Positions 1 through 39,410 of a DNA stretch of 39,410 nt are shown here, in pieces (the first letter of the stretch is position 1; each line of letters starts with the position of its first letter). The DNA is from Jimgerdemannia flammicorona (Eukaryota). The translations under genes were made by a program, and so were the position numbers. The notes beneath the pieces are model-generated. The model was not told the DNA's origin. It worked only from the letters and a program-made list of their open reading frames with translations, and ran no database searches. The stretch spans positions 1-39,410 of the forward strand of contig RBNJ01000142.1 of the NCBI GenBank assembly GCA_003990765.1, written 5' to 3'.

Positions 1-859
1 TCCAGTTCTGAGCTCCGTGCCCTCCCAGACCTTGAACCCCACGTCCACAATCTCACCATACTCCTTTATCGCCTCTATGACCACCTCCCTGGTCCTTTCC
101 TTCGACACCGTAGGGAGGTCCAACACCATCAACTGCACCACCCGGGGGTCCCAGCGCATACACCGAGCCATAGGGACCACAACCCCGCCAACCATCACCC
201 CCTTTTCCATGGCTGCCAACAAGGCATCTTCCTCCTCGAACCCCACTTCAACCCCTTCCTTCCCCCTCAAAAACTTCACCAACGCTGCTCCCCTAGCCTC
301 CTGCGCCACCAGCCCCAAAATCATCCTCGCCGTCACAGCCAAGCCCCGGAAGCACATTGTGACCGCGAATTCTGACCTCGACTTTGAGTAACGGGGCCGA
401 CACCATGCCCATCACCCCATCTGCCAGGTCCCCGGGCCTCATGCCCACTCTAAGTCCCAAATTGCCAACCGCCGTCACATCTGGATTTTTTGCCAGATCC
501 CCAGTCACAGCCCCATCAACCGTCACATCTCCAGCCCCTACTCCGGCCTCTACCCTACCACCAGAAGCACCCTGGGGTGCACCTCCTTGACCCCCGGTAG
601 TAGCCATCGATGCCTTCCCCAGGCCCAGCCAACTATCCAGCCCAGAAGCCATCGCCCCCATCCTGACCTTGTCAGCAAAGGTCGTCCTCTCCCCTCCTCT
701 CTGCCTCAGACCTCCCCTCCCTCCGCCGCTGGGGCCCCGGCTAGCCATCGAGGCCCCTGGCATCCCCAAACCATCTCCCCTCCTCCCCACCTGCTGCCAG
801 CCAAAGGCGCCGCCACCCCCCTGGCTAGTATGCTCACCAGATCGATCGTTGCCATCCAT
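1..859 (-). pseudogene. LINE ORF1-like protein with one frameshift near 390-412
   Basis: Gly-rich N-terminus with TFADKV. A second frame is open from ~410 to base 1: ...GVEVGFEEEDALLAAMEKGVMVGG...VVQLMVLDLPTVSKERTREVVIEAIKEYGEIVDVGFKVWEGTELRTG, resembling the RRM-like core of L1/Tx1-clade ORF1. Confidence 0.65.
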
Positions 860-943
860 GTTATTAGTCGTTGGACACCAAAAACATTGTAGAAAGTGTT
901 GTCTGAGTCTTGTGTAACCTGAATGTTACCAGAGAAAGATGTG
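1..943 (-). mobile_element. 5' end of a non-LTR retrotransposon (L1/Tx1-like LINE) inserted into the 3' LTR of Gypsy element A; continues off the left edge
   Basis: GC- and CpG-rich block abutting element A LTR homology at 944; ~85-nt leader before ATG 859; ORF1-like translation. Confidence 0.7.
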
Positions 944-5019: not shown

Positions 5020-6300
5020 GATATTGGTTCTTCCTGAGTGGTACTTGATTGTACAGTCATACTCTTGCAGTCTGTAGATCCATCTGGCATATACATATTT
5101 CTTTGGAGTTCATAGTGTGGAATAGCCAGGCAAGAGCAGAATGGTCTGTTTGAATAGTGAAGTATTTCCCAGCTAGGTAGTAGTGGAACTTATCTACTGT
5201 CCAAACTACTGCTAAGCATTCGAGCTTGCATGACTCATAGTTCTGTTCTGCTTCATGGGTATCTTGACTTACATAGGAGATAATATATTCATATCCATCT
5301 TTCTTCTGAGCTAGGACTGCTCTAAGTCCTATAGCACTTACATCTGTCTGCAGGATGAATTCTAGGTTCCAATCTGGTTTTCTGAGGATAGGTGCTTGGG
5401 TCAATCTGGTCTTGAGTTCATTGAAGGTTTCTTGGTACTCCTTGGTCCATTTAAATTTAGTTTTCTTCTTCAGTAGCTCATAGATAGGTACTGCAATATT
5501 AGAGTATCCTTTGATGAACCTTCTGTAGTAGCTGGCCAGTCCAAGGAAGGCATAGACTTCTGTGGTTGTTCTGGGTCTCAGGTAGGCTGCAACAGTCTCA
5601 ATCTTCATGGGGTCTGTGTGGATTCCAGTCTGATTGATGAAGTGTCCTAGATAGGTGATTTTCTGAGCTGCAAACTTGCATTTCTTGGGCTTGATATAGA
5701 GGCCATGCTCCTTGAGCTTCTTGAGGGCTAGCTATATGTAATTGATATGTTCCCATACAGTGTTGCTGAAGATAATCATATTATCAACATAGACAAAGAG
5801 CTATTTTCCAATCTTATTGCTGAAGACTCTGTTCATCATTCGCTGAAAACTTACTGGGGCATTGTACATTCCAAATGGTATTCACAGGTAGATATAGGTG
5901 GCATCAGGTATGATGAAGGCTGATTTCTCACTGGTATCTTGTATGAGACCAATCTGATAGAAGCCTGAGAACAGATCCAAGGTAGTGTAGTATTTGGCTT
6001 TACTTCTAAGAGTAGTAAGGATTTCTTGAATATTTGGCAAGAGCTATCTATCTTTCTTGGTGATGGCATTGAGCTTCCTGTAGTCAATGCAGAGTCTTGG
6101 TGCAAACTCTTCAGGCTTGCTTCCTTTCTTTGGGGCAAGGACAATGAGTGAAGCCCAGGAACTGATAGCTTGCTTGATGATTCCAGCTTCTTCCATTTCC
6201 TTGAGTTCTGCTTGCAACCATTCTCTGTAGACAGGTGATATGGGTCTGGCTTTCTGGTAGATGGGCTTGGTATCACCAGTGTCAACTTTATGGTAGTACT
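5020..6300 (-). pseudogene. Reverse transcriptase and RNase H of element A
   Basis: VLAPKK...PRLCIDYRKLNAITKKD; VYVDNMIIF (decayed YVDD); FLGLASYYRRFIKGYS; FILQTDVSAIGLRAVLAQ; LECLAVVW; TDHSALAWL. Confidence 0.95.
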
Positions 6301-6481
6301 TGGGTTCTTGATTGTAGATATCCCTAAAGTCTGTAGTGAGTACTCCTTTGTTCTAGTGCAGAATCTTGAGAAGTTGTTCTTCTAGAGGAAAGTTTTCTCC
6401 AATGATATATGTGTGCTTGTTCTGGTCCTTATCTTTCTTGTACTCAAGTTTAGTAATCTTGATAGCAGTATAGGCTCCTCT

Positions 6482-6893
6482 TCCAGTAGATCCAAAGCCT
6501 TGTTCTTCTCTTTTAATCTTGATGAGTTTGATGGCTTCTATGATCTTGGGCTTCTTGACTTCATAGATCAGCATCTGGCTAATCCTGTCATACTTCTTGA
6601 TTTCAAATAGAGTGGTGGAGTTGTGATTCCTGACTATGAGAAAGATCTCATCAGTGTAATCAGAGTCAATTACTCCTCCTTTAACTGAGATTTCGCTTTT
6701 GGCCAGACTGCTCCTGGTCTTGATAATTCCAGTATGATTCTCTGGCAGCTTGACTCCAATTCCAGTGCCAAGTAGGGTAGTGGTCTGTGGTTCAAGGGTA
6801 GCATCTTGAATGCTAGCAAGGTCCATTCCTATGGCTCCTTCAGTCTTGTATTCTGGGATCTTGGCTTCGGGGTAAAACTTCTTGATCTTGAGG
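6482..6893 (-). pseudogene. dUTPase domain between protease and RT in element A
   Basis: Motifs GAIGMDL, KTRSSLAK, GGVIDSDYTDEI, DRISQM, QGFGSTG. Confidence 0.95.
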
Positions 6894-7289
6894 GTGATGT
6901 CTGATTCTTATTCCTCCTCATCATCACTATCAGCCTGAAGCTCTGGGGGCTAGTCATCTTCTTCAGCTTTTCATTTTGCTTTAGTAGCTTCTTGCTCATA
7001 TTTCTGATGGCAGATTTTCCTGACTTCACTGATATAGGACCAGCAGTCATTCAGGTGTTCAGAGCAGTACATCCTAGTACCATGGAGGTATCTTCCTTGA
7101 GGGGTATAGCCATTGATGATCTTGCTGTACCACTGCTCATCTGTAAGCTTGGGTGTCTTATTCTTATTCTTATTTACTGAGTACATGAAGACTTCTGTAT
7201 CCTCTTCATCTCCTTCCTCCATGTCTAGTAGGACTCCTTTGTGAACATTGATAGAGACTTGTACCTTTCTTCCTCTATAGTTGATCTGC

Positions 7290-7610
7290 ATCTTCTGGGC
7301 ATTGAGGTCAATGATGGCCTTGGCCTTATGAAGCCATTGGTTGCCAATGAGGATATCATAGTTGGTGGCACTTGTAACAATTACATCTACTGGGATAGTA
7401 GCTTCTTCTATCTTTATGGGGACTTCTCAGATTTTGCCAAGGGGGGTAGCTTGTGTACCATCTACTGTGATACAGACCATCTTGGTAGACTCTTCAATGT
7501 CCCAGCCTAGGCAGTCAATTGCCTTCTTGCTTATAAGACATCCTCCAGCACCAGTATCAATGATAGCATCAAAGATACAGTCTTCAATCTGACATGGGGT
7601 ATAGGCTGAT
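7290..7610 (-). pseudogene. Aspartic protease of element A
   Basis: DAIIDTGAGGCLIS catalytic motif; downstream DILI-GNQWL-like segment (frameshifted). Confidence 0.85.
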
Positions 7611-8179
7611 GTCTTGTGCTGATCTTCAGATTCTTCACCTGAGTTCTCAGATTCTTCCTGTGCATTGTGAGCTTCTACAATCTTGTACTCTTGATTCTTG
7701 GTGGTAGTTGTAAGTCCTACTCTCAACTACTGTCTAAAGGTAGGAACTTTAGCTAGCTGTCCAAAGGTAGCATTGACCTTCTATTCCTTGAGGTCCTTGT
7801 AGATATCATACTGATGGATCTTGGTCTTGCACAGCTTCTGTTCCTTCTTGCTTTCATTTTCTCCTGAGACTGGAGTAGTACCTTCTATGATTTGGTAGGC
7901 AGCTTCATCTAACTCTATATCTTGATCAATCTCCTCAGATTGAGTCTTTCTTTGAATGGTGACAGCAGGGGTCTTCTTTGGTCTTCCAACTGGCTTACTG
8001 TTGCTCTTCTTGTCATAGGGCTTGGACCAGGTTCTGGTACCTTCAGTAGCAGGGTAGAATTCAAGCTCCTCATAATATTCTTCATCATCAGTGTCACCAA
8101 TCTCCTTGATGACTACTGCATTGGTTTGTTCTCTGGTTCTGCTAGCATTGCTTGGTTGGGCTTTGTGTCTTGTTTTGGT

Positions 8180-8986
8180 TATGCAATTCTTTGCATAGTG
8201 GCCTTCTTCTCCACATCTGAAGCATGTGATATTGTATTCTTCTGTAGTAGCTGCAAATCTCTGCACTGGTCTCCTGTTGGCACTTCAGACTTCTCTAACA
8301 ATATCACTAAGGTATGTAGTCATCTTGGTGAACTGCTTGATAAGTTCTTCTACTGGATCAGCTTTGGCTGTCTTGGGGGTAGATGGGGATGGTTATCTGT
8401 TTACAACTATGGTAGGTATGATACTAGTTGGTTTTGATGGCTCCATCTTGATGCCAGTTATTTTCTCTATTGAGTGTTCGGCAGGGTGTCTGGCTGTCCA
8501 ATATCTCTGTATAAAGACTACTTTCTGATCAAGGGTCAGTGCAGCTGAAATAGATCAGATTGCTAGGGCAATTTTAGGGTGAACTCTTTTGAGGAAGGTT
8601 GAATCTGCTATTTGTTCCTTGAGGCAGTCATCATAACCAGCCAAGACAATCTGATGGCAGATTCAGGTATAGAATAAGTTGGGATCTTCACTAAGTCTCT
8701 GATAGATAGTATTGAGTTGATCCTTGAGAGCTTGCTTAATCTCTTCAGTATAGTATGTTGTTCTGAGGAAGGCCTTCATATTGGTAAGTTTGGCTGCATC
8801 ATTATCAGCAATAGTAGCTACATTGAACTTATCTCTAGTAGATCCTCTGAGGCTGACTGGTAAAAGGGCCAATTATATATCCATACCAAGGGCTCATATA
8901 GTGGCAAATTGTTCAAAGTCTTCAATGAAGGTCAGGATTGACTCTTCAGTAGTATATCTATAGAATGTGGGGGGATATATTTCCAT
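8180..8986 (-). pseudogene. Gag of element A with CCHC zinc knuckle
   Basis: MEIYPPTF...FIEDFEQFA; LLPVSLRGSTRDKF; CFRCGEEGHYAKNC at ~8185-8226. Confidence 0.85.
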
Positions 8987-19559: not shown

Positions 19560-19900
19560 TGATGGTCAGAGAATGGTTTACCCAATCGATCATGGGGTTC
19601 TCTTGTTTTAACCATGGAGTCCCAAGGATGATTTCATTGTCAGGAAGTGGTATGATTTGGAGGATAACATATACTCAGTAGTCACCAATTCAGAAGGGTA
19701 GATTGCGGACTTCTTTGCTAATAACATGTGAGGTTCCATCAGCTGTAGCAACTGCTTGAGTTTGCTGTACTGGGGAGGTGAAGACCTTGAGTCTATTGGC
19801 TGTCTCTTCATTAATGAAGTTGCCTGAGGCACCACTGTCTATCATAATCTTGACAGGTGCTCCATTGACAAAAGTCTTAAGGGTGAGCAGTTTGTCTGAT
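19560..19900 (-). pseudogene. Aspartic protease of element B
   Basis: VNGAPVKIMIDSGASGNFI; IILGTPWLKQENPMIDW. Confidence 0.92.
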
Positions 19901-20107
19901 CCAATGGTGGTGATTTCAGTTGTAGGAGCCTTTCTTCTGTTGGTTCTTCTTTGAGCCAGTTTGTTGACACAAGAGAAGCAATCATCAATCATTCGGGAAG
20001 AGTATATTCCAATACCATGAGGGCATCGGCCACTTGATATATATCCATCTTTGATCTTCTTGTAGAATTGTTCTTCTTTGCTTATGGTAGATTGGGCTGG
20101 GGCCTTG

Positions 20108-20520
20108 TTTGATGAGCCAAATCCTTTGGATCCTCAGATGGTGGGCAGTAGTTCAGGGACTTCTTTGACTGTCAGGGTTGACTTGATTTTTTCGAATAGG
20201 ATCTGGGTGATGCAGAAGCCAATAGGGATCTTGAAGGGTGTCCAACTGTGATTTCGAATGAGGACAATGATTTCGCCTGTATAATCTTCATCAATGACTC
20301 CTCCTTCTACTGAGAGTCCTTTCAGTACTAGGCTGCTGCAACAGCATATTCTTCCAACATGTCCTTCAGGGATTTGGATACTGATTCCTGTATAGACTTG
20401 TTTGACTTCTTGGTTAGAAACTGTAGCTTCTTCGGCTATATACAGGTCATATCCAGCTGCTTTTTGACTTTCTTTTGGTTGGGGTCTTAGCAGTTTGTCT
20501 TAACTTGACAAAGTCCAGTG
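20108..20520 (-). pseudogene. dUTPase of element B, between zinc knuckle and protease (absent from the ORF track)
   Basis: Manual translation: AAGYDLY...GHVGRICCCSSL..GGVIDEDYTGEII...CITQILF...*GSKGFGSS; the motif Arg residues appear converted by CpG decay. Confidence 0.92.
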
Positions 20521-24660: not shown

Positions 24661-24699
24661 ATTGGTCAGATTTTTCTTGAACTAAAACTGTTATTGAAG

Positions 24700-25100
24700 A
24701 TATGATCTCAGGAAGTAGTGAAGATGTAGTCTTGGGAGATAGTGAAGATGTAGTCTCAGAGGACAGTAAATATGCAATCTCAGGAGATAGCAAAGATGTG
24801 ATCTCAGGAGATAGTAAAGATATGATCTCAGGAGATAGTGAAGATATAGTCTTAGAGGATAGCAAAGATGTAGTCTCAGGGGGCAGTAAAGATATAGTCT
24901 CAGAGTAGTAAAGATATAGTCTTAGAGGAGAGCAAAAATACAGTCTCAGAGAGTAGTAAAGATGTAGTCTTAGAGGGGTAGTGAAGATACAGTTTTGGAG
25001 AGTAGTAAAGAGAGGAGTGAAGATATAGTCTTAGAGATAGTCTCAGGAAGTAATAAAGATATAGTCTCAAAGATAGTAAAGATACAGTCTCAGATAGCAG
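24700..25100. repeat. Decayed 24-bp minisatellite, about 16 units
   Basis: Consensus approx. GGAGATAGTAAAGATATAGTCTCA; produces the spurious GDSEDVVS / SSLSPEII ORFs. Confidence 0.9.
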
Positions 25101-30030: not shown

Positions 30031-30695
30031 ACCTCTGCGAACTTGCGCTGCGCCGTCCTCAGCTTGAGCTTCAGCATGTCAGCCGCGCCTGAACCACGCG
30101 CGCCATTTGCTGCTCTTCGGCCAGGCCGCAGCTGTCCCGTACGGGCAAGAGTGGTGCGCAGATCGGCTAGCTCATGGTCGTTGTGGGTTGTGGCGTGGAT
30201 AGAGCGCGCACGAGCTCGCTCGAAGCGGGGCAGAGGATGACGGTGTCAGCAAGTCACCGAGAGGTAAGTGCATTGCTACCCACATTATTTTTGCATACCC
30301 TCGCTTGCACAACATAGTACTTACAGACTTAGCGACGTTTTTGTATCAACGGAGGCTTAGTCAATATTTTATGCTGGTCTTGAAATCATAGAAAATATGC
30401 TTACAAATTTGGTCAATAACTTACTCCAACTTCAAAAATGCTCCAAGCATCCAACAAAGAGCACTGTTTATATTCAGCGATGGGCATTCGAGCGGTTGCT
30501 TTCTGGAGTTGGCCGTCGGGTGGCCACTCTCACAATATGTAATCCCAAGATTCAGAACTTGAGTATTATCTCAAACAATTCGGACAAAGTCAAAATTGAA
30601 TCGCCATTGAAACACACACAGCTATGGAATCAATATTATACACCGATAATCTTCTGGTTATGTTAGGACAGCCATCACTTCGCTGCAGTTACCAT

Positions 30696-33600
30696 CTGAA
30701 AATAAACAGAGGATGGGCGAACACAAATAGATCGTGAGCTCAATTCCGTCGCGCAGCTTCACACAATGTTTTACACAGTCGCTGATGCTGTTAACTGAAC
30801 ATGAAAGAGGTGGGTGAGCGGACACGCACAGATCGTGAGTTCAATCCCATCATGTATCTGCACACAATGCTCCACACAGTTCCGAGATACATTCGAGATT
30901 CAGCGTGGTCAAGGTCGTATTCTACTCTAGAGACTCGGCTAGTGCGCTTGATCCTTCTGTTTCCCTGAACATGGATGGGCAAATACGCACAGATCGTGAG
31001 TTTGATTCATCGCGCAGCTGCACACAATGCTTCACACAGTTCCGACATACTGTAGAGATTCAGTGTGGTCAAGGTCGTGTTCTGTTTCCGAGACTCGGCT
31101 AGGGCGCGTGGCCCCTCACTGCCGATCTGTTCTCTGAACATGAATAAGGAATGGATGAGCAAATACACACAGCTCGTGAACTTGATTCCATCGCGCAGCT
31201 GCACACAATGCTTCACACAATTCCGACATACGTTCAAGATTCAAAGTCGCGCTCCGTTTCAGATACTCGGCTAGGGCGTGTGCCCCCTCGTCGCCGATGC
31301 TGTTCCCTGAACATGAATAAGGGATGGAGGAGCAAACACACACAGACCGTGAGCCTGCTCCCTGCACACAATGCTTCTCACAATTCCGACATACATTGGA
31401 AATTCAGCGTGGTAAGCGTCGTATTCTGCTTCAGAGACTCGCCCAATGCACGTCCTCCCTCGTCATCGATCCTATTGCCTGATGCACAGGGGATGGATAG
31501 ATGAGCAAACATGAAAACATGCAAAGATCGTGAGCTAGAACTCAGCAAACAGCAGTTCACACAGTTCAATCATACTTGAGAGATTCAGCGTGGTCAGCGT
31601 CGCGTTCTGCTTCAGAGACTCGCCCAGTGCGCGTCCTCCTTCAGGGCCGATCTCATTTACTTAAAATGGGATGGATGAGCAAACACGCAACGATCGTGAG
31701 CTGGAACCCATCACCCAACTGCAAACAGCAGTTCACACAGTTCAAACATACCTCCGAGGGCAAGCGTAGTCAGCGTCGTGTTCTGCTTCAGAGACTCTCC
31801 CAGTGCGCGTCCTCCCTCGTCACCAATCCTATTGCCTGAAGATGCACAGTGCCCGGGGGATGGATAGATGAGCAAACATACAAAGATCGTGAGCTGGAAC
31901 CCATCATACAGCTGCAAACAGCAGTTCACACAGTTCATACATATATACTTGAGAGCTTCAGCGTGGTCAGCATCGCGTTCTGCTTCAGAGACCCGCCCAG
32001 TGCGCGTCCTCCCTCAGGGCCGATCTCATTCACTTAAAATGGGATAGATGAGCAAACACGCAAAGATAGTGAGCTGGAACCCATCACCCAGCTGAAAATG
32101 CAAACAGCAGTTCACACAGTTCAAACATACCTCCGAGGTCCAGCGCGGTCAGCGTCTTGTTCTGCTTCAGAGACTCGCCCAGTGCGCGTCCTCCCTCATC
32201 ATCAATCCTATTGCCTGAAGATGCACAGTGCACAGGAGATGGATAGATGAGCAAACATGCAAAGATCGTGAGCTGGGACCCATCATGCAGCTGCAAACAG
32301 CAGTTCACGCAGTTAATAAATACTTGAGAGATTCAGCGTGGTCAGCATCGTGTTCTGCTTCAGAGACTCGCCCAGTGCGCGTCCTCCCTCAAGGCCGATC
32401 TCATTCACTTAAATGGGATGTATGAGCAAACACGCAAAGATCGTGAGCTGGAACCCATCACCCAGCTGCAAACAGCAGTTCACACAGTTCAAACATACCT
32501 CCGAGGTCCAGCGTGGTCAGCACCGTGTTCTGCTTCAGTGCGCGTCCTCTCTCAGGGCCAACCCTATTCACTTAAAATGCACAGGGGATGGATGAATGAG
32601 TAAATATAGCTGGAATTCATCACCCAGCTGCAAACAGCAGTTCACACACTTTGAGATTCAGCGTGGTCAGCGTCGTTTTCTGCTTCAGAGACTCGCCCAG
32701 TGAGCGTCCTCCCTCATCACCAATCCAATTTCCTGAAAATGCACAGTGCACGGGGGATGGATAGATGAGCAAACATGCAAAGATCGTGAGTTGGAACCCA
32801 TCACGTAGCGGCAAACAGCAGTTCACACAGTTCAAACATACTTGAGATATTCAGCGTGGTCAGCGTCATGTTCTGCTTCAGAGACTCGCCCAGTGCGCGT
32901 ACTCCCTCAGGGCCGACCCTATCAACTTAAAATACATAGGGGATAAATGAATAAGCAAACACACACAGATCGTGTGCTTGATTCTATCGCGCAGCTGCAC
33001 ACAATTTTTCACACAGTTCCGGCATACATTCGAGATTCAGCGTGGTCAAGGTCGAGTTCTGTTTCAGAGACTCGGCTAGAGCGTGTGTCCCCTCGTCACC
33101 GATGCTGTTCGCTGAATTAAAGAAGGGATGGATGAGCAAACACGCACAGATCGTAAGCTTTATTTCATTAAGCAATTGCACATAATACTTCGCATAGTTC
33201 TGACTTACCGGAGAGATTAAGCTTGGTAAACGTCGTGTTCTGCTTTAGAACCTCAGCTAGGGCCCGTACTCCCTTGTTACCAATGTAGTTCTCTTTATAA
33301 TGAACAGGGATGAGCAAACACGTATATACAAATCGTGATATTAGCTTATAATACAACTGTACACAATTTTCACACACCTTCGAGATTCAGCTCGGCGGTG
33401 TTCTGCTTCACAGACAAGGCTATAGTGTGAGCAACCTTGTAGCCAATGCTTTTTACTATACATAACAGGGGAATAGCGAAAACGCCACATCGTGAGTGAG
33501 CTTAATTCCATTACGCAGATGCACACGATGCTTCCCATGGTTCTGACATACAGGAAATAGTCAGCTCCGTCAATGTCGCATTCTGTTTCAGACTCAGCAA

Positions 33601-35720
33601 GGACGCATACCTCCTTGTCGCTGATAAAATGAACGGGAAATGAGCGAACACGCACAGATATTGAACTTGATTCCATCACCCAGTTGCACACAATGCTTCC
33701 TGACATACTTTCGAAATTCAGCTTAGTTAAGGTCGTGTTCTGCTTCAGAGCCTCGGCTAGGACACGCGCCCCGTCATCGCCAATACAGTTGTCTGAATGT
33801 GAACAGGTGATTAACGAAAATGAGCGAACATGAACAAGGGATGAGCGTTCACACAGATTGTGAACGTGATTCCGGCATGCAGCTCTATACAATGCCTCAC
33901 ACAGTTCTGACATACTTTGGAGATTCAGCCTAGTCAAGGTCGTGTTCTGCTTCAAAGAATCGGCAATAGCATGCGCGCCCTTATGGCCAATGCTGTTGTC
34001 TGAACATGACCAGGGGATGAGCAAACACACACAGATGGTGAGTTTGAATTTCATTACACACAGTTGCACACAATGTTTCCTGACATACTTTCGAAATTCA
34101 GCTCAGTTAAAGTCGTGTTCTGCTTCAGAGTCTTGGCTAGGACACGCGCCCCGTCATCGCCAATGCTGTTGTCTGAACATAAATATGGGGTGAGTGAACA
34201 GGAAAGATTCAGCTGGGTAAAATTCTTGTTCCGGTTCAGAAACTCGGCTAGGGCGCATGCCCCTTTGTCGTCGATGTTGTTCTCTTTAAATTGAACAGGG
34301 GATGAGCGAACACATACAATCGTGAGCTTGATTCTATCGTGTTGTGGCATACAATATTTCTCACAGTTCTGACATACTTTCAAGATTGAGCTCGGTCATC
34401 TCCCGCTTCACAGACAGGGCTATGGTGTGTGCCGCCTTATAACCGATACTGCTTACTGTACATAAACATAGAGTGGCGAAAACTTCCAATTTTGAGTTGT
34501 GTTCCATCACGCAGTTGCACACAATGCTTCGCACGATTCTGACATACAGGATAGAGTTAGCTCGGTCAAGGTCAGAGACTCGGCAATTACTTGTGCCTCC
34601 TTGTTGCCGATGTTGTTCGCTTTTGGATAAGCGAACATGTATAGATCATGAGTTTGATTCCATCATGCAGTTCTGACATACAATAAATGTTTAGCTCGGT
34701 TAAGGCCATGTTCTTCCTCAGAGTCGTGGCGAGGACGTTTTCTCCACCGCCGCCGACGCCGCCCCCCTTGAAACAAACAGAGGATGGGCATACATGCAAA
34801 GATTGTGAGCACAATCTATCACCTAGCTGCACGCAATATTTCACCCATTCTGACATACGGGATAGATTCAGTTTGGCCAAGGTCGTGTTTAGCGTCAGGG
34901 ACTCCGCCAACTCGTGACCCTTTAAATGAGTGAACACGTACAGATCGTGAGCTTACTTCCATCAAGCAGTTGTACAATGCTTAACACAGTTCTCACATAC
35001 GAGAGAGATCCAACTCGGTCAAGATCGTATTCTGCTTTATAGAGGGCGCGTGCCCCCTCGTTGCCAATGCTATTCCCTTTAAAATAAATAGAGGGTTAGC
35101 AAACACACGCCTTTATTCCATCACTCAGCTGAACACAATACCTCAAAAAGTTCTGACATACAAGAGAGATTCAGTGCCATTAAGGTCTTGTTTTGTTTGA
35201 GAAACTCGGCTAAGAAGCGGGCAAACAGAATGCCGATGTTGTTGACTAAATATGAACAAGAAATGTGAGCATATCTGGCTCACAAATTTGTATCTACAAC
35301 ATAACAGGAAACAATAGTTAACTTACTGCTGAGATTGAGTTTGATTATATTTATATTCTGCTTTAGAAACTCGATGACAATATGCACTGCCCTATCGTTG
35401 ATATTCTTTCCTGAAAATGAAGACCAGGGATGAGAAACCAAGCCATATAGTAAGCTTGACTTTCTGCAAACAAAAGTTTGACAGAGTTCTATCATACCAA
35501 AGAAATTCAACTCATTCGAGATTGTGTTCCGCTTCAAAAACTGAACTAGGGCTCTGGTCCCTTCATTATCAATGTCATTGTTTGAAGATGAACAGAGGAT
35601 GGGCAAATACTTATAGATTGTAAGCTTGATCCCATCAGACAGCTGCAAACAATGGTTTTCAAAATTCTGACATACTGGTCATATTCTGCTTCAGAGGCTC
35701 GGCGATGGCGAGGGTCTCTA
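30696..35720 (-). repeat. Tandem array of ~30 exon+intron units (~170-195 bp when intact); 84-nt exon = 28-aa LRR xNxIGDEGxRALxESLKQNTTLTTLNLx
   Basis: Repeated GTATGT donor, homologous ~90-110-nt introns with GCTCAC/GCTCAT and YAG/AAG acceptors. Intact 84-nt exons include 31395-31478, 31576-31659, 31752-31835, 31949-32032, 32131-32214, 32324-32407, 32842-32925, 33028-33111, 33209-33292, 33709-33792, 33916-33999, 34089-34172. Confidence 0.95.
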
Positions 35721-36119
35721 GACTTCGTTGAGGCTCTTCCGTGATTCGTTTGAGTTGTTCGCAGGTGTGGAATTCGTTGCTGGTAGCGTTGCTGTTTCGG
35801 GATTCTAGATGGGAGTAATTTGTATATAAATTGATATGCAGTGTTAACTGTGAGACTCGTGATGAAACCTACCTCGACTTTGCTGAGAAATAGCCACTAA
35901 TCGTGAGTGCTCTTCCATGATTCGTTTTAGTTGATCACCAGTGTAGAATTCGCTGCCAGAAACGCTGCTGTTTCGGGGTTCTAGTTCTTGCTGATGGTTA
36001 GCCCGTCGTGTGACAATGATCAATTGTACCTCAGGTGAAAACGGCAAGTGTGCAATTGCAAGCTCTCCCAGAATTTGCCATTCCATGTTTGGTTGCAAAC
36101 CCCGACTAAACTGGCTGCA

Positions 36120-36880
36120 CATTCGATCAATTGATTGTAGACTTGAAGGGTGCTCGGTCGCTGGTCGGGATCAAGGTGCCAGCAACTCCGAATGATATTG
36201 TTAAATGCCGTTGGTGCAGGCCATCTGGATTGCTCTCAACGGCCGTGGATGCGAAACCTTTTGGTGGAACGCCTACAATCAGCCGCCACAGCAGGGTTCC
36301 CAAGCAGTAGATGTCCGATTTCTGGATATACTGCTTTTCCTCAAAAATCTCTGGAGGAAGGTATTCTAATCGACCATAAACTCCTTTCGTGGAGTGTACC
36401 TCTTCTACAGAACTGCTAAGACCAACATCAATCAAGAGCGCGATATCAGAGCTATGAAACACTACATTACCCGCGTACCCCATGACAGAAACCCATATTG
36501 TGAAGAATGACCATGTGGCTGGCAAGTTTCATGCCATATGTTAAAGCGGTGTACCAATCACCATCTTGTTCGCATGATATAACCATGAGATATATACTCT
36601 TCAGTTTTTGAATATTGTGACAAACTAGCAACAGCCATTATCAAATAAATATTCAACACTAACTATATTGATGAGATAAAGACAGTAGAATTACTTATAA
36701 GCTAGACTATATGAAGAGTACTATATGACACCAACTGAATCTCACCTCTATAACCATTGATGGCTTCGGCTAACTTATAAAATGCGGGTTTCACATAAAC
36801 CTGTGTCTGGTAAACCTTTGCAAACCCGCCTTCAGCAAGTAGCTTAACATCGTTGACCGGGATCCAGGCAAGATATGGGT
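36120..36880 (-). pseudogene. Kinase domain (TKL-like), catalytic loop frameshifted
   Basis: LAWIP..LLAEGGFAKVY; LHNMGFCHG/AGNVVF; LIDVGLS; YGRLEYLPPEIF; KSDIYCLGTLLW; IIRSCWHLDPDQRPS in a shifted frame; VAIK region not found. Confidence 0.9.
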
Positions 36881-37822
36881 CCAGCTGTGGCACGCCCAAG
36901 GTGTTGAGACAGGCACGGAGTTTTTGGTCGTCACGGGGATATAGGTTCTTCCATACCGATATTTTCTTTTGGTGGGCTTTTTTCTTTTGGCGGGCTTCGT
37001 CCAGGTGTTCGAAGGGCTTGATTCGGGCCAGCAGGTTCTGTAGGCGAGTGTGGGGGGACGATTTTGACACAACCACAAAGGCGATTTCGGTGAACACAAT
37101 ACGTCACATGATCACGTATGACCACAGGTCAATGATGCAGGAATGTCTTGGGCGCCTAGCGCAAAAATGTTTCAACGCCGTTGTTTCGTCTAAGGCGTAT
37201 GTAAAATTGGGCGTAGGTTTCCTTTTATGGTATTAGCGCAGTGTGCACTATTTCTATATGTAATCTATCATTCAGCTTTACACTTACGCTCTACGCTTCC
37301 GTACATTCGTACGCATTTTTCATTACCACCCACCCCCCCCCCTCTACATATGTATATACACTTATTGGCTGGGCCGGTTTTTTATACCGTGTGTTTCACC
37401 CAAATACAGAACAATGATCATTCATTTGTTACTTGGTCATTCATTGGTTGGCAAGAGGTTATTGGTGTATTCTCGTCGTAACGTAGTTGACATCACGTGA
37501 GCGTAGCGTAGTCGTTATCACGCGGTTGCAGCGTAGATTGACATTACGGCAAAACATTGACGGTATTGAATCAGTAGTTTCAAGCCAACGCTTGGTGACG
37601 CTATGCTTATGAATTCTTACTATACGTCAACTCGCTTTAGCTACACTCTAGTCTACACCCACATGGCGCATGTCTCGAGTGGGATGATTCCGTGCCCAAT
37701 ACCCGAGTATACTCATATTTTTGAACATATAGAAATAGGACAGATGTAGTTCCTCCAATAATGGGGAAGACTTTTGGTCACGGTAAGCGGGATATCTTTC
37801 ATCTACTGGTATAGTTTTTTAT

Positions 37823-37824
<2 letters not shown>

Positions 37825-37894
<70 letters not shown>
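37825..37894 (+). repeat. Poly(T) tract (~70 nt) at the left end of a ~430-bp AT-rich island that also has a poly(A) run at ~38157-38172
   Basis: Seen directly in the sequence. Confidence 0.95.
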
Positions 37895-38219: not shown

Positions 38220-38480
38220 TTAAGATATAATTATACAAGTTATTAGTTCTTCGTGGTCAAACTTGCAGCCAAGTGGAGTGGCGGCACACCGCCCTTGCTT
38301 TTGACGTTCGCATCCATCCCAAACTTTAACAAAAGCAAGTTCACCACCTCGACGTAACCGGCCGATGCTGCCCAGTGCAATGGCGTCCGGCTGTCCATTT
38401 TCTCGATGTTGCGGTGGCATTCTGTGTCTCCGGCGATACCCGTAAGTGCCCTCTTCACTTCGATATTCCCTACCAATGCG
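38220..38480 (-). pseudogene. Ankyrin-repeat gene fragment
   Basis: DSRTPLHWAASAGYVEVVNLLLLKFGMDANVKSKGGVPPLHLAA, continuing as DHEELI in another frame before running into AT-rich DNA. Confidence 0.85.
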
Positions 38481-39410
38481 GTCCATTGCGATATTGTCCA
38501 ACCACAGACGACGTAACATTCTTTGCATGTACCACTAGCTGCTAGTTCCTAAATTGTTGGTTCTAACCGCACGTTACAAAAAGTGACTTGAGTGGTTATG
38601 TTTCCAAAGCTTGCATGATGGGAAGGATTCAGACATACCTTGATTTGCCTGGGATGTATTTTGCCCTTTCGTTGCCCTTCCGTTACCGCTGGCGATTGCG
38701 AATATTTTTTGCCGGTTAAACCGGGAATGCGTGCAATTTTTTTTTTTTTTCCAAGCCTCGACATCTTGAACAGGGTTCGTTCTTGTCGCACAATTTTCTA
38801 CTCCTGTCGCGTCGTTTCCTGGGGCCGATTCCGTTCCGCTTAGTTGTGGCGTCTCAATGAAAAATTGGTCACCAATATGAGTAGGAGTGTTTGTACGCTC
38901 ACTTCAAAGATGGGTTTTTTATTTCACTTGAGGGAACCCAACTAAGTTGTGACATGTTACCAATTTACGTTCAAGAATGTGAGTTGATGGCTTGTGGGCA
39001 TCACCTACAAAGAATTCGTGATTATACATCGCTAATAATGCCATGTATTTTTTGTCATTGTCATTTATCCACATATTATTGAGTCCGGCCGTATCTTACA
39101 TGTCACAGAAAATTTGCGCGTTCTAATGTCACGGAGGAGTTTGTGCGCGTTCGGAATGTCACGCTTGGAAAGTCGCGGAATCGAAAAAGATTTTGAATGC
39201 AACACTCCGGCGACGGAATGCTCCGCAGCTAGTGATCGACAGTTCTCCCCGCGCCCGCTCAACGGTAAAGAGCATACAAACGAGAAGGGTATCCGCAATC
39301 GCAAAGGAAGTAAAACCCAACAAAGAGTTTCAGTGACGATGCCTGTGGCGGTTTGGACGTTGAGGGGGACTTGTATGGTGACGGGGGAAGGTTGTTCAGT
39401 GGGCGGGGGG

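Follow-up and report, generated by a model that had tools for sequence, protein, structure and literature searches.

A probable decaying kinase-LRR pseudogene built of one-repeat exon cassettes in Jimgerdemannia flammicorona

Structure of the locus

We analysed a 39,410-nucleotide (nt) stretch of contig RBNJ01000142.1 of Jimgerdemannia flammicorona (assembly GCA_003990765.1, positions 1 to 39,410; hereafter the window), whose minus strand carries, from about 37049 to 30697, a kinase-like region and, after it, 30 tandem units encoding leucine-rich repeats (LRRs). One unit consists of an 84-nt exon, which encodes a single 28-residue LRR of the ribonuclease inhibitor (RI) type, and of a homologous intron of 60-123 nt. 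An earlier reading of the letters alone (the original prediction) had described about 30 one-repeat cassettes at this place and had proposed that the gene encodes a variable cytosolic receptor. The number of cassettes was borne out. A single unit used as an nhmmer seed matched 29 units, all between 35711 and 30711 and spanning exon and intron positions, and a profile made of the clean exons alone recovered 29 units and a terminal remnant, all on the minus strand, with nothing credible outside the array or on the plus strand of the window and no plus-strand match within the array. Tandem Repeats Finder (TRF) detected four periods within 31008-33116, namely 193 nt with 7.9 copies, 379 nt with 3.1 copies and 87% matches, 172 nt and 162 nt. 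When both strands of the whole window were searched for an open 84-nt exon preceded by AG, followed by GT and carrying the motif L[KR][QRK][NS], all 14 matches fell in the minus-strand array, and the plus strand gave none.

Fourteen of the 30 units, that is under half of the array, have canonical exons, and with the frame set by the LRR translation all 14 are of phase 1-1, as had been claimed for the intact exons. Six other units are shortened in frame (u08, u09, u14, u15, u20 and u27), each of them with AG and GT retained; three have lost a splice site, five are frame-broken or degenerate, and two are terminal remnants. Unit u10 is fused in frame to u11 through an intron remnant of 27 nt. The 17 full-length open exons gave the consensus LxxLxLxxNxIgdeGaxxLaxxLkxN, with leucine invariant at positions 16 and 25. 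All canonical units encode 28 residues; the alternation of 28- and 29-residue A and B repeats seen in RI and NLRP3 is absent, and two sequence types alternate only in a young block of units (u18-u26). Because the introns interrupt the read-through frame, the LRR_6 match of the read-through open reading frame (ORF) in the window lies below the cutoff (E 0.0019).

The predicted homology of the introns between units also held, since the nhmmer seed, which covers exon and intron, matches 29 exon-plus-intron units. An intron-only profile found 29 sites, all within the array, versus 0 in 20 shuffles; this profile was built from the same introns, and the single-unit nhmmer search is the independent evidence of their homology. 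The conserved blocks comprise an extended donor (GTATGTCAGAAC..), a CAGCTG block, a branch-site-like block (..AGCTCACGATCT..) and a TTGCTCATCC block. In alignments where gaps count as mismatches, intron identity reached 0.48 for old and 0.61 for young units, as against 0.17-0.20 in shuffled controls.

The kinase region and its lesions

The ORF at 36127-36528 (-) matches the Pfam family Pkinase (PF00069; E 1.2e-9, 38.4 bits, cutoff 31.7) and also PK_Tyr_Ser-Thr (PF07714; E 7.7e-8), the match covering only profile positions ~128-199. Together with a tblastn search of the window with an intact relative from Endogone (P0004, see below), this confirmed that the gene begins with a kinase. The kinase homology is spread over frames -1, -2, -3, -2 and -1, which amounts to four frameshifts, and its segments end only a few bases apart, leaving no room for introns. 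From the upstream in-frame stop (~37104-37106) to the conserved TRLQ with which the homology starts, the sequence contains no ATG. After the short fragment at 36591..36638 the frame shifts in a TATATAT run and about 11 N-lobe codons are lost. At the catalytic loop, a shorter stretch (..GFCH, followed across a frameshift by G-Y-A-G-N) takes the place of HxDLH, with a net loss of 5 nt, and the catalytic Asp is gone; about 7-8 further codons are deleted after ..NPDGL. The metal-binding Asp is retained in IDVGLS, as in the relatives P0001-P0004, where DVG aligns to DFG. The Pfam alignment of P0004 starts only at about profile position 73, and the N-lobe is too divergent for the beta-3 Lys and the alpha-C Glu to be placed. 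The last part of the linker between kinase and LRRs is duplicated in tandem, with a 76-nt core of 82% identity and a spacing of 176 nt.

An AT-rich stretch of ~120-160 nt (36600-36760, -) separates the N-lobe piece from the kinase piece that follows; P0004 has some 22 residues at this place. The stretch may be an intron that has degenerated, inserted DNA or coding sequence in decay.

The damage extends into the array, where the five frame-broken or degenerate exons (u29 among them, with a stop) and the three lost splice sites are further pseudogene lesions. The prediction that the kinase is dead thus agrees with the missing start codon, the four frameshifts and the loss of the HxD motif. Because the start codon is missing, the frame is shifted four times, the catalytic motif is lost and exons are broken, the locus is most probably a pseudogene, and one of the unprocessed kind: introns and gene order are retained.

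Relatives of the encoded protein

A protein database search with ORF 36127-36528 (-) returned 11 proteins. The closest are three fragments (P0001-P0003) with 67-74% identity to the ORF, in which the same kinase stretch is encoded in single predicted proteins. LRRs occur in one of the 11 only, P0004, the 769-residue hypothetical protein BC937DRAFT_86469 of Endogone sp. FLAS-F59071 (Endogonales, Mucoromycota); another match is a kinase from Jimgerdemannia that has no LRRs. With Endogone and Jimgerdemannia, both Endogonales, as the sources of the best named relatives, the fungal origin assumed in the original prediction is plausible. P0004 matches PK_Tyr_Ser-Thr (E 1.9e-22) and LRR_6 (PF13516; E 1.3e-33) and contains 12 repeats in an exact 28-residue register. 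In tblastn, its N-terminus, kinase, linker and LRRs were matched in gene order in the window, with 50% identity in the N-terminus, 51% in the kinase C-lobe and 45-65% between its repeats and the window exons. Like the window locus it has a conserved N-terminus, an atypical kinase, a linker and 28-residue RI-type LRRs running to the C-terminus; unlike that locus it is undamaged, with 12 repeats in place of 30 units, and it is too divergent to represent the same locus.

Two further claims of the original prediction could be judged on this intact protein. The order, a kinase first and RI-type LRRs after it, is that of P0004, and the absence of a signal peptide or transmembrane (TM) helix agrees with its hydropathy: the highest Kyte-Doolittle mean over 19 residues is 1.36, and nothing in P0004 resembles a TM or signal segment. 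A comparison with solved structures pairs its LRRs with the ribonuclease inhibitor chain 1dfj_I (E 5.3e-29), and its kinase with those of the ABL1 type (E 1.6e-16). A possible affinity to the tyrosine kinase and tyrosine kinase-like (TK/TKL) groups is suggested by the higher score of PF07714 than of PF00069 for P0004 and by the best solved matches, EGFR, ABL1, FAK and MAP3K12. The kinase motifs of P0004 are HED..N and DVG, and HKD..N and DVG of P0001 align to HRD..N and DFG of the solved EGFR kinase; judged by these alignments, the catalytic Asp, Asn and Asp are all present in the intact relatives, and the HRD Arg is missing. Neither P0004 nor the ORFs of the window gave a Pfam match to a NACHT, NB-ARC or ROC-COR domain. 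The kinase-LRR protein is not a nucleotide-binding, leucine-rich repeat (NLR) protein, because P0004 has neither a NACHT nor an NB-ARC domain.

The fusion of such a kinase to LRRs looks rare, although the closest matches of P0001 are short fragments. A full-library search with P0001 gave 104 proteins at E <= 1e-30, and Pfam found an LRR in none of 20 relatives (long, high-scoring and hand-picked among the 150 matches listed). A search with the whole length of P0004 gave mostly NACHT-LRR and RanGAP-like LRR matches; the other proteins in it that combine a kinase with LRR_6 are two Tetraselmis entries and P0078. The last of these was rejected as a family member, its domain order being reversed. 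No description of this kinase-LRR family or of its exon structure was found in the literature searched, PMC8778642 included.

Growth of the array and selection

In the young block, alpha units (..NRIGDEGG..LGG, with a short intron) and beta units (..NEIGPEGG..LNLSS, with a longer intron) alternate and thereby form a two-unit repeat of 379 nt. Units of the same type are 87-95% identical in their exons and 88-96% in their introns over aligned columns. At the junction of the hybrid exon u20, a 12-nt deletion lies between the beta 5' half and the alpha 3' half, and this exon is direct evidence of unequal recombination within the array. Growth by unequal crossover, as had been predicted, fits both the two-unit repeat and the hybrid exon.

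We compared codon positions and the ratio of nonsynonymous to synonymous change (dN/dS) in older and younger units. Nine older full-length exons have a pooled dN/dS of 0.31 and identities of 0.69, 0.70 and 0.54 at codon positions 1, 2 and 3, whereas eight young exons have a dN/dS of 0.80 and identities of 0.83, 0.85 and 0.85, with no position bias. Past selection for protein function has left its trace in the older units, whose third codon positions are less conserved and whose dN/dS is 0.31; the 379-nt two-unit block appears to be drifting neutrally, since it lacks a codon-position bias. Variability between repeats is highest at positions 3, 24 and 28 (x positions of LxxLxLxxNxI), followed by 6, 9 and 20, as measured on paralogous repeats of one dead copy. 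The anticipated variability at exposed LRR positions was seen between repeats, but any LRR protein would be expected to show it, and it does not count as evidence of allelic hypervariability.

Sister arrays in metagenomes

We scanned metagenome contigs with a degenerate pattern for an exon end and its donor, which matches 8 units in the window. The scan gave nine loci, five of which are real LRR arrays and four of which are distinct (L004 duplicates L002). Loci L001, L003, L006 and L009 were rejected as chance matches without LRRs. Exons of 84 nt between AG and GT account for 7 of the 8 units of L002 (one with a stop), 6 of the 8 of L005, 4 of the 5 of L007 and 2 of the 4 of L008, the last two arrays running to the contig end. 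The sister exons are in phase 1 like those of the window, and their introns, of 63-154 nt, are homologous within each array. The search for sister arrays that accompanied the original prediction thus succeeded, with four distinct arrays, two of them with a non-kinase N-terminus. Conservation is lower at third codon positions than at the other two in L002, L005 and L007, which are the arrays with four or more 84-nt exons, and this suggests that these arrays are under coding constraint. Window and sister introns show marginal similarity at the right places (nhmmer E 0.015-0.8), which can be put down to shared splice signals and, possibly, distant common descent.

No P0004-like kinase was found upstream of the sister arrays. 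Those of L002 and L008 are headed by a common N-terminal domain of ~130 residues, apparently helical, for which there was no Pfam match above threshold, no longer homolog and no usable language-model match. Because the sister arrays share 84-nt phase-1 exons, the design of one repeat per 84-nt exon characterises a wider group of LRR genes, in which at least two kinds of head occur at the N-terminus. Beside the sister LRR genes of L008 and L002, and divergent from them, lies an ORF of 612 residues with no Pfam match even at E <= 10. Its language-model features are weakly MACPF-like (score 0.91, 138 of 256 features shared), its AlphaFold model has a mean predicted local distance difference test (pLDDT) score of 29.3, and it contains a GTHF..G stretch reminiscent of the MACPF signature; a MACPF identity is a lead only.

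Interpretation and alternatives

We propose, with a probability of about 0.8, that the locus is an unprocessed pseudogene in decay, belonging to a small kinase-LRR family of Endogonales-like (Mucoromycota) fungi, whose cassettes were multiplied by unequal recombination; the part of the original prediction that allowed for a relic fits this J. flammicorona copy, with its missing start codon, 4 frameshifts, lost catalytic loop and broken exons. The proteins of the family would be cytosolic and would consist of a short conserved N-terminus, an atypical TK/TKL-like kinase without the HRD Arg, a linker and a C-terminal solenoid of RI-type LRRs. The LRR domain would be encoded as one 28-residue repeat per 84-nt phase-1-1 exon, the short introns deriving from one ancestral intron, and the array would gain and lose exon-plus-intron units as these duplicate in tandem and recombine unequally. 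The ancestral gene was presumably functional, and its intact relatives may couple ligand-binding LRR modules to a kinase output. On the simplest reading, the latest amplification (u18-u26) took place at or after the loss of constraint and may have inflated the array to 30 units, as compared with 12 repeats in P0004.

Several observations weigh against this proposal. As many as 20 of the 30 exons keep an open frame and usable AG and GT, several damaged units have an alternative in-frame acceptor, and exon skipping could conceivably still yield a product of LRRs only. One or two of the kinase frameshifts sit in short homopolymer or TA runs, and some indels could be assembly errors. The dN/dS of the young units is 0.80 and not 1, u18 and u21 differ by 9 nonsynonymous and 0 synonymous changes, and diversifying selection would give the same pattern in these units. 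Finally, only one full-length intact kinase-LRR relative is on record, so that the family rests on few sequences.

If the locus were instead a working gene for a variable receptor, damaged exons would be skipped in frame, subsets of exons would vary the solenoid, and the kinase damage would be tolerated or bypassed by another start. The 14 canonical and 6 shortened in-frame exons, with AG, GT and phase 1-1, would lend themselves to this, units without a splice site would naturally be skipped, the extended splice signals are conserved across the introns, and alternative splicing of LRR exons is documented, in the available parts of the sources, for brown-algal ROCO genes and human NLRP3. We nevertheless consider this very unlikely: the start codon is missing, the frame is shifted four times and the catalytic loop is gone, u05, u07 and u28 keep both splice sites yet would shift the frame if included, u29 has a stop, and the young units show no codon-position bias. 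It is highly improbable that the gene is intact in the organism and that the frameshifts are errors of long-read assembly. The window does hold a 70-nt poly-T run, and one kinase frameshift lies in G and T homopolymer runs and another in the TATATAT run; most lesions, however, are multi-nucleotide, which is atypical of consensus errors and makes assembly error unlikely as a general explanation. They include exon deletions of 8, 12 and 23 nt, the 5-nt net loss at the catalytic loop, the losses of ~7-8 and ~11 codons and the 176-nt-spaced linker duplication, besides the point change to TAG and the change of an acceptor from CAG to CAA.

A dead array might also serve as a reservoir, from which cassettes are copied into intact paralogs by gene conversion or unequal exchange, as happens with pseudogene segments of some antigen-receptor systems. 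Many cassettes are indeed intact and flanked by conserved introns that could act as homology tracts, and the hybrid exon u20 shows that recombination occurs within the array. Neutral decay, however, accounts for the data without any donation, and no near-identical cassette was found elsewhere; the best identity between a window cassette and a sister cassette is 74%, a weak test of donation as the sister loci are probably from other organisms. The suggestion that the array donates cassettes therefore found no support, and we regard it as extremely improbable.

Beyond the pseudogene reading of this one locus, a wider possibility may be put forward tentatively, although we consider it unlikely: Endogonales-like fungi might possess an undescribed cytosolic LRR repertoire assembled from interchangeable 84-nt phase-1 cassettes, which would diversify by unit duplication and recombination, possibly also by exon skipping, and in which the cassettes would be hooked to differing heads, an atypical kinase in the window and in Endogone and a helical domain at two metagenome loci. 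Such a repertoire would be a fungal LRR-based counterpart of the ROCO receptor sets of brown algae and the NLR sets of animals, in a kingdom whose candidate intracellular sensors have been reported to lack LRRs, and dead arrays would arise in it as by-products of fast birth and death, or might even act as reservoirs of cassettes.

Comparison with known systems

In the available parts of the sources, the LRR-ROCO genes of brown algae are described as having 72-nt phase-2 exons, each encoding one LRR of the plant-specific type, N-terminal to a ROC-COR GTPase; they include many pseudogenes and 'inactivated exons', carry LRR exons also on the noncoding strand within introns and were proposed to be diversifying candidate receptors, whereas the LRR-kinases of Ectocarpus specifically showed no shuffling (PMC3341825, PMC11378527). 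As far as these sources describe it, the window array shares with them the tandem arrangement of one LRR per exon of fixed length and symmetric phase. It differs in its 84-nt phase-1 exon and its RI-type LRRs C-terminal to a kinase, in having 0 opposite-strand exons and in lacking a ROC-COR domain. In human NLRP3, according to the available portion of the source, each 171-nt exon encodes a pair of 28- and 29-residue repeats of the RI class, with a fixed border, and an exon is skipped (PMC6642158). The window array resembles this vertebrate NLR and RI design, so far as that portion goes, in its RI-class LRRs, its modular exons with a fixed border and the possibility of in-frame skipping; its 84-nt exon encodes one 28-residue repeat, unlike that of NLRP3, it has no NACHT domain, and the homology of its introns is evident. 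The window locus thus shares a genomic design with brown-algal ROCO genes and NLRP3 and is a member of neither.

The NLR-like proteins of fungi (signal transduction ATPases with numerous domains, STAND) carry WD40, ANK or TPR repeats, and in the available parts of its text a survey found no LRRs among them (PMC4986451, PMC10197012). Their repeats are described there as highly conserved internally and as changing in number by recombination, and the proteins, which possess a NACHT or NB-ARC domain, were proposed to be non-self sensors (PMC4986451). Measured against that partial description, the kinase-LRR proteins are likewise fungal and cytosolic and have internally conserved tandem repeats that change by recombination, but they have no NOD domain, and their repeats are LRRs, each on a separate exon.

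Plant LRR receptor kinases also combine LRRs with a kinase without the HRD Arg. In these receptors an extracellular LRR domain of the plant type is followed by a TM helix and then by the kinase, and kinases without the HRD Arg have been linked to innate-immune receptors. Unlike the plant proteins, the kinase-LRR protein has its kinase first, its LRRs are of the RI type, and P0004 has no TM or signal segment.

Taken together, the window locus, P0004 and the four sister arrays show RI-type LRR proteins with symmetric one-repeat exons to exist in an early-diverging lineage of fungi; this is the same genomic design that permits repeats to be gained, lost or skipped in frame in vertebrate NLRs and brown-algal ROCOs. 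The value of the relic lies in its clear record of array growth, with exon-plus-intron duplication, a two-unit repeat and a hybrid exon, and it points to intact family members worth study.

Table 1. Features of the kinase-LRR locus, of its surroundings in the window and of the sister loci. Canonical exon: AG, 84 nt, GT, open frame.
Feature	Coordinates	Strand	Basis
N-terminal region and glycine-loop part of kinase-like domain; matches P0004 residues 4-101	36759..37049	-	tblastn, 50% identity, E 3e-24
Short kinase fragment; matches P0001 residues 1-16	36591..36638	-	
Kinase segment up to catalytic loop, second frame	36483..36574	-	
Kinase from ..GN of catalytic loop via DVG and PPE to alpha-G, third frame; 74% identical to P0001	36217..36477	-	
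C-terminal kinase helices, second frame again after multi-codon deletion with frameshift	36098..36200	-	
Kinase-to-LRR linker, copy 1, another frame, ends in stop codons	35877..36116	-	tblastn, linkers of P0001, P0002, P0004
Linker, copy 2, tandem duplicate, continuous with u01	35707..35802	-	
Whole LRR array, 30 exon + intron units	30697..35740	-	TRF, nhmmer, exon profile
u01: first, partial LRR, in one exon with linker copy 2; GT donor present	35676..35740	-	
u02: 84 nt, open; acceptor CAA instead of CAG	35498..35581	-	
u03: canonical exon	35327..35410	-	
u04: canonical exon	35162..35245	-	
u05: 76 nt; frame shifted by internal 8-nt deletion	35001..35076	-	
u06: 5' exon half gone, only 3' part recognisable	34859..34940	-	
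u07: degenerate, G-rich; 85 nt from nearest AG (+1 nt)	34682..34765	-	
u08: 72 nt; 12-nt in-frame deletion; AG and GT retained	34548..34619	-	
u09: 78 nt; 6-nt in-frame deletion	34378..34455	-	
u10: 84 nt, open; donor lost, next intron only 27 nt (34173-34199)	34200..34283	-	
u11: canonical exon	34089..34172	-	
u12: canonical exon	33916..33999	-	
u13: canonical exon	33709..33792	-	
u14: 69 nt, in frame via internal CAG; canonical acceptor lost	33552..33620	-	
u15: 78 nt; 6-nt in-frame deletion	33378..33455	-	
u16: canonical exon	33209..33292	-	
u17: canonical exon	33028..33111	-	
Young block u18-u26, 379-nt higher-order repeat	31395..32925	-	TRF, pairwise identities
u18: canonical exon, beta type	32842..32925	-	
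u19: 84 nt, open; 3-nt deletion destroys donor, no in-frame GT left	32649..32732	-	
u20: 72-nt hybrid exon, 5' half beta, 3' half and intron alpha	32499..32570	-	
u21: canonical exon, beta type	32324..32407	-	
u22: canonical exon, alpha type	32131..32214	-	
u23: canonical exon, beta type	31949..32032	-	
u24: canonical exon, alpha type	31752..31835	-	
u25: canonical exon, beta type	31576..31659	-	
u26: canonical exon, alpha type; then older-type intron	31395..31478	-	
u27: 75 nt; 9-nt in-frame deletion	31232..31306	-	
u28: 83 nt; 1-nt deletion shifts frame	31051..31133	-	
u29: 5'-truncated; TAG stop at Lys of LKQN motif	30891..30964	-	
u30: terminal remnant, ~25 nt of exon start, then intron-like sequence	30715..30794	-	
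Zinc knuckle	7781-8284	-	Pfam
Retrotransposon protease	6971-7426 and 19690-20133	-	Pfam
dUTPase	6353-6907 and 20134-20499	-	Pfam
Reverse transcriptase (RT)-RNaseH	5057-5731	-	Pfam
Sister-array N-terminal domain	L008 2616-3329; L002 6087-6503	+	
612-residue ORF, divergent beside sister LRR gene	L008 692-2527; L002 3817-5451 (split in two)	-	

Surroundings of the locus

Just upstream of the pseudogene lies an ankyrin-repeat ORF (38243-38548, -; Ank_2, E 1.1e-18), and the 70-nt poly-T run (37825-37894) and an AT-rich stretch occupy the space between the two. A 24-nt tandem repeat of 16.5 copies (24697-25090; 70% matches, with nested 36- and 70-nt periods) sits in a strongly GC-skewed, AT-rich stretch. 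The first part of the window (1-925) is GC-rich (58%) and has long overlapping Pro/Gly-rich open frames on both strands; a 210-residue ORF in it (293-925, -) had no Pfam match. The window also holds two decayed copies of a long terminal repeat (LTR) retrotransposon (5057-8284, - and 19690-20499, -) with a dUTPase between protease and RT, their parts all broken into separate ORFs. Copia-like parts (gag-pre-integrase and integrase core, by Pfam) adjoin the array of L007 (7302-11227, -), and the window array and that of L007 are alike in lying beside transposon remnants.

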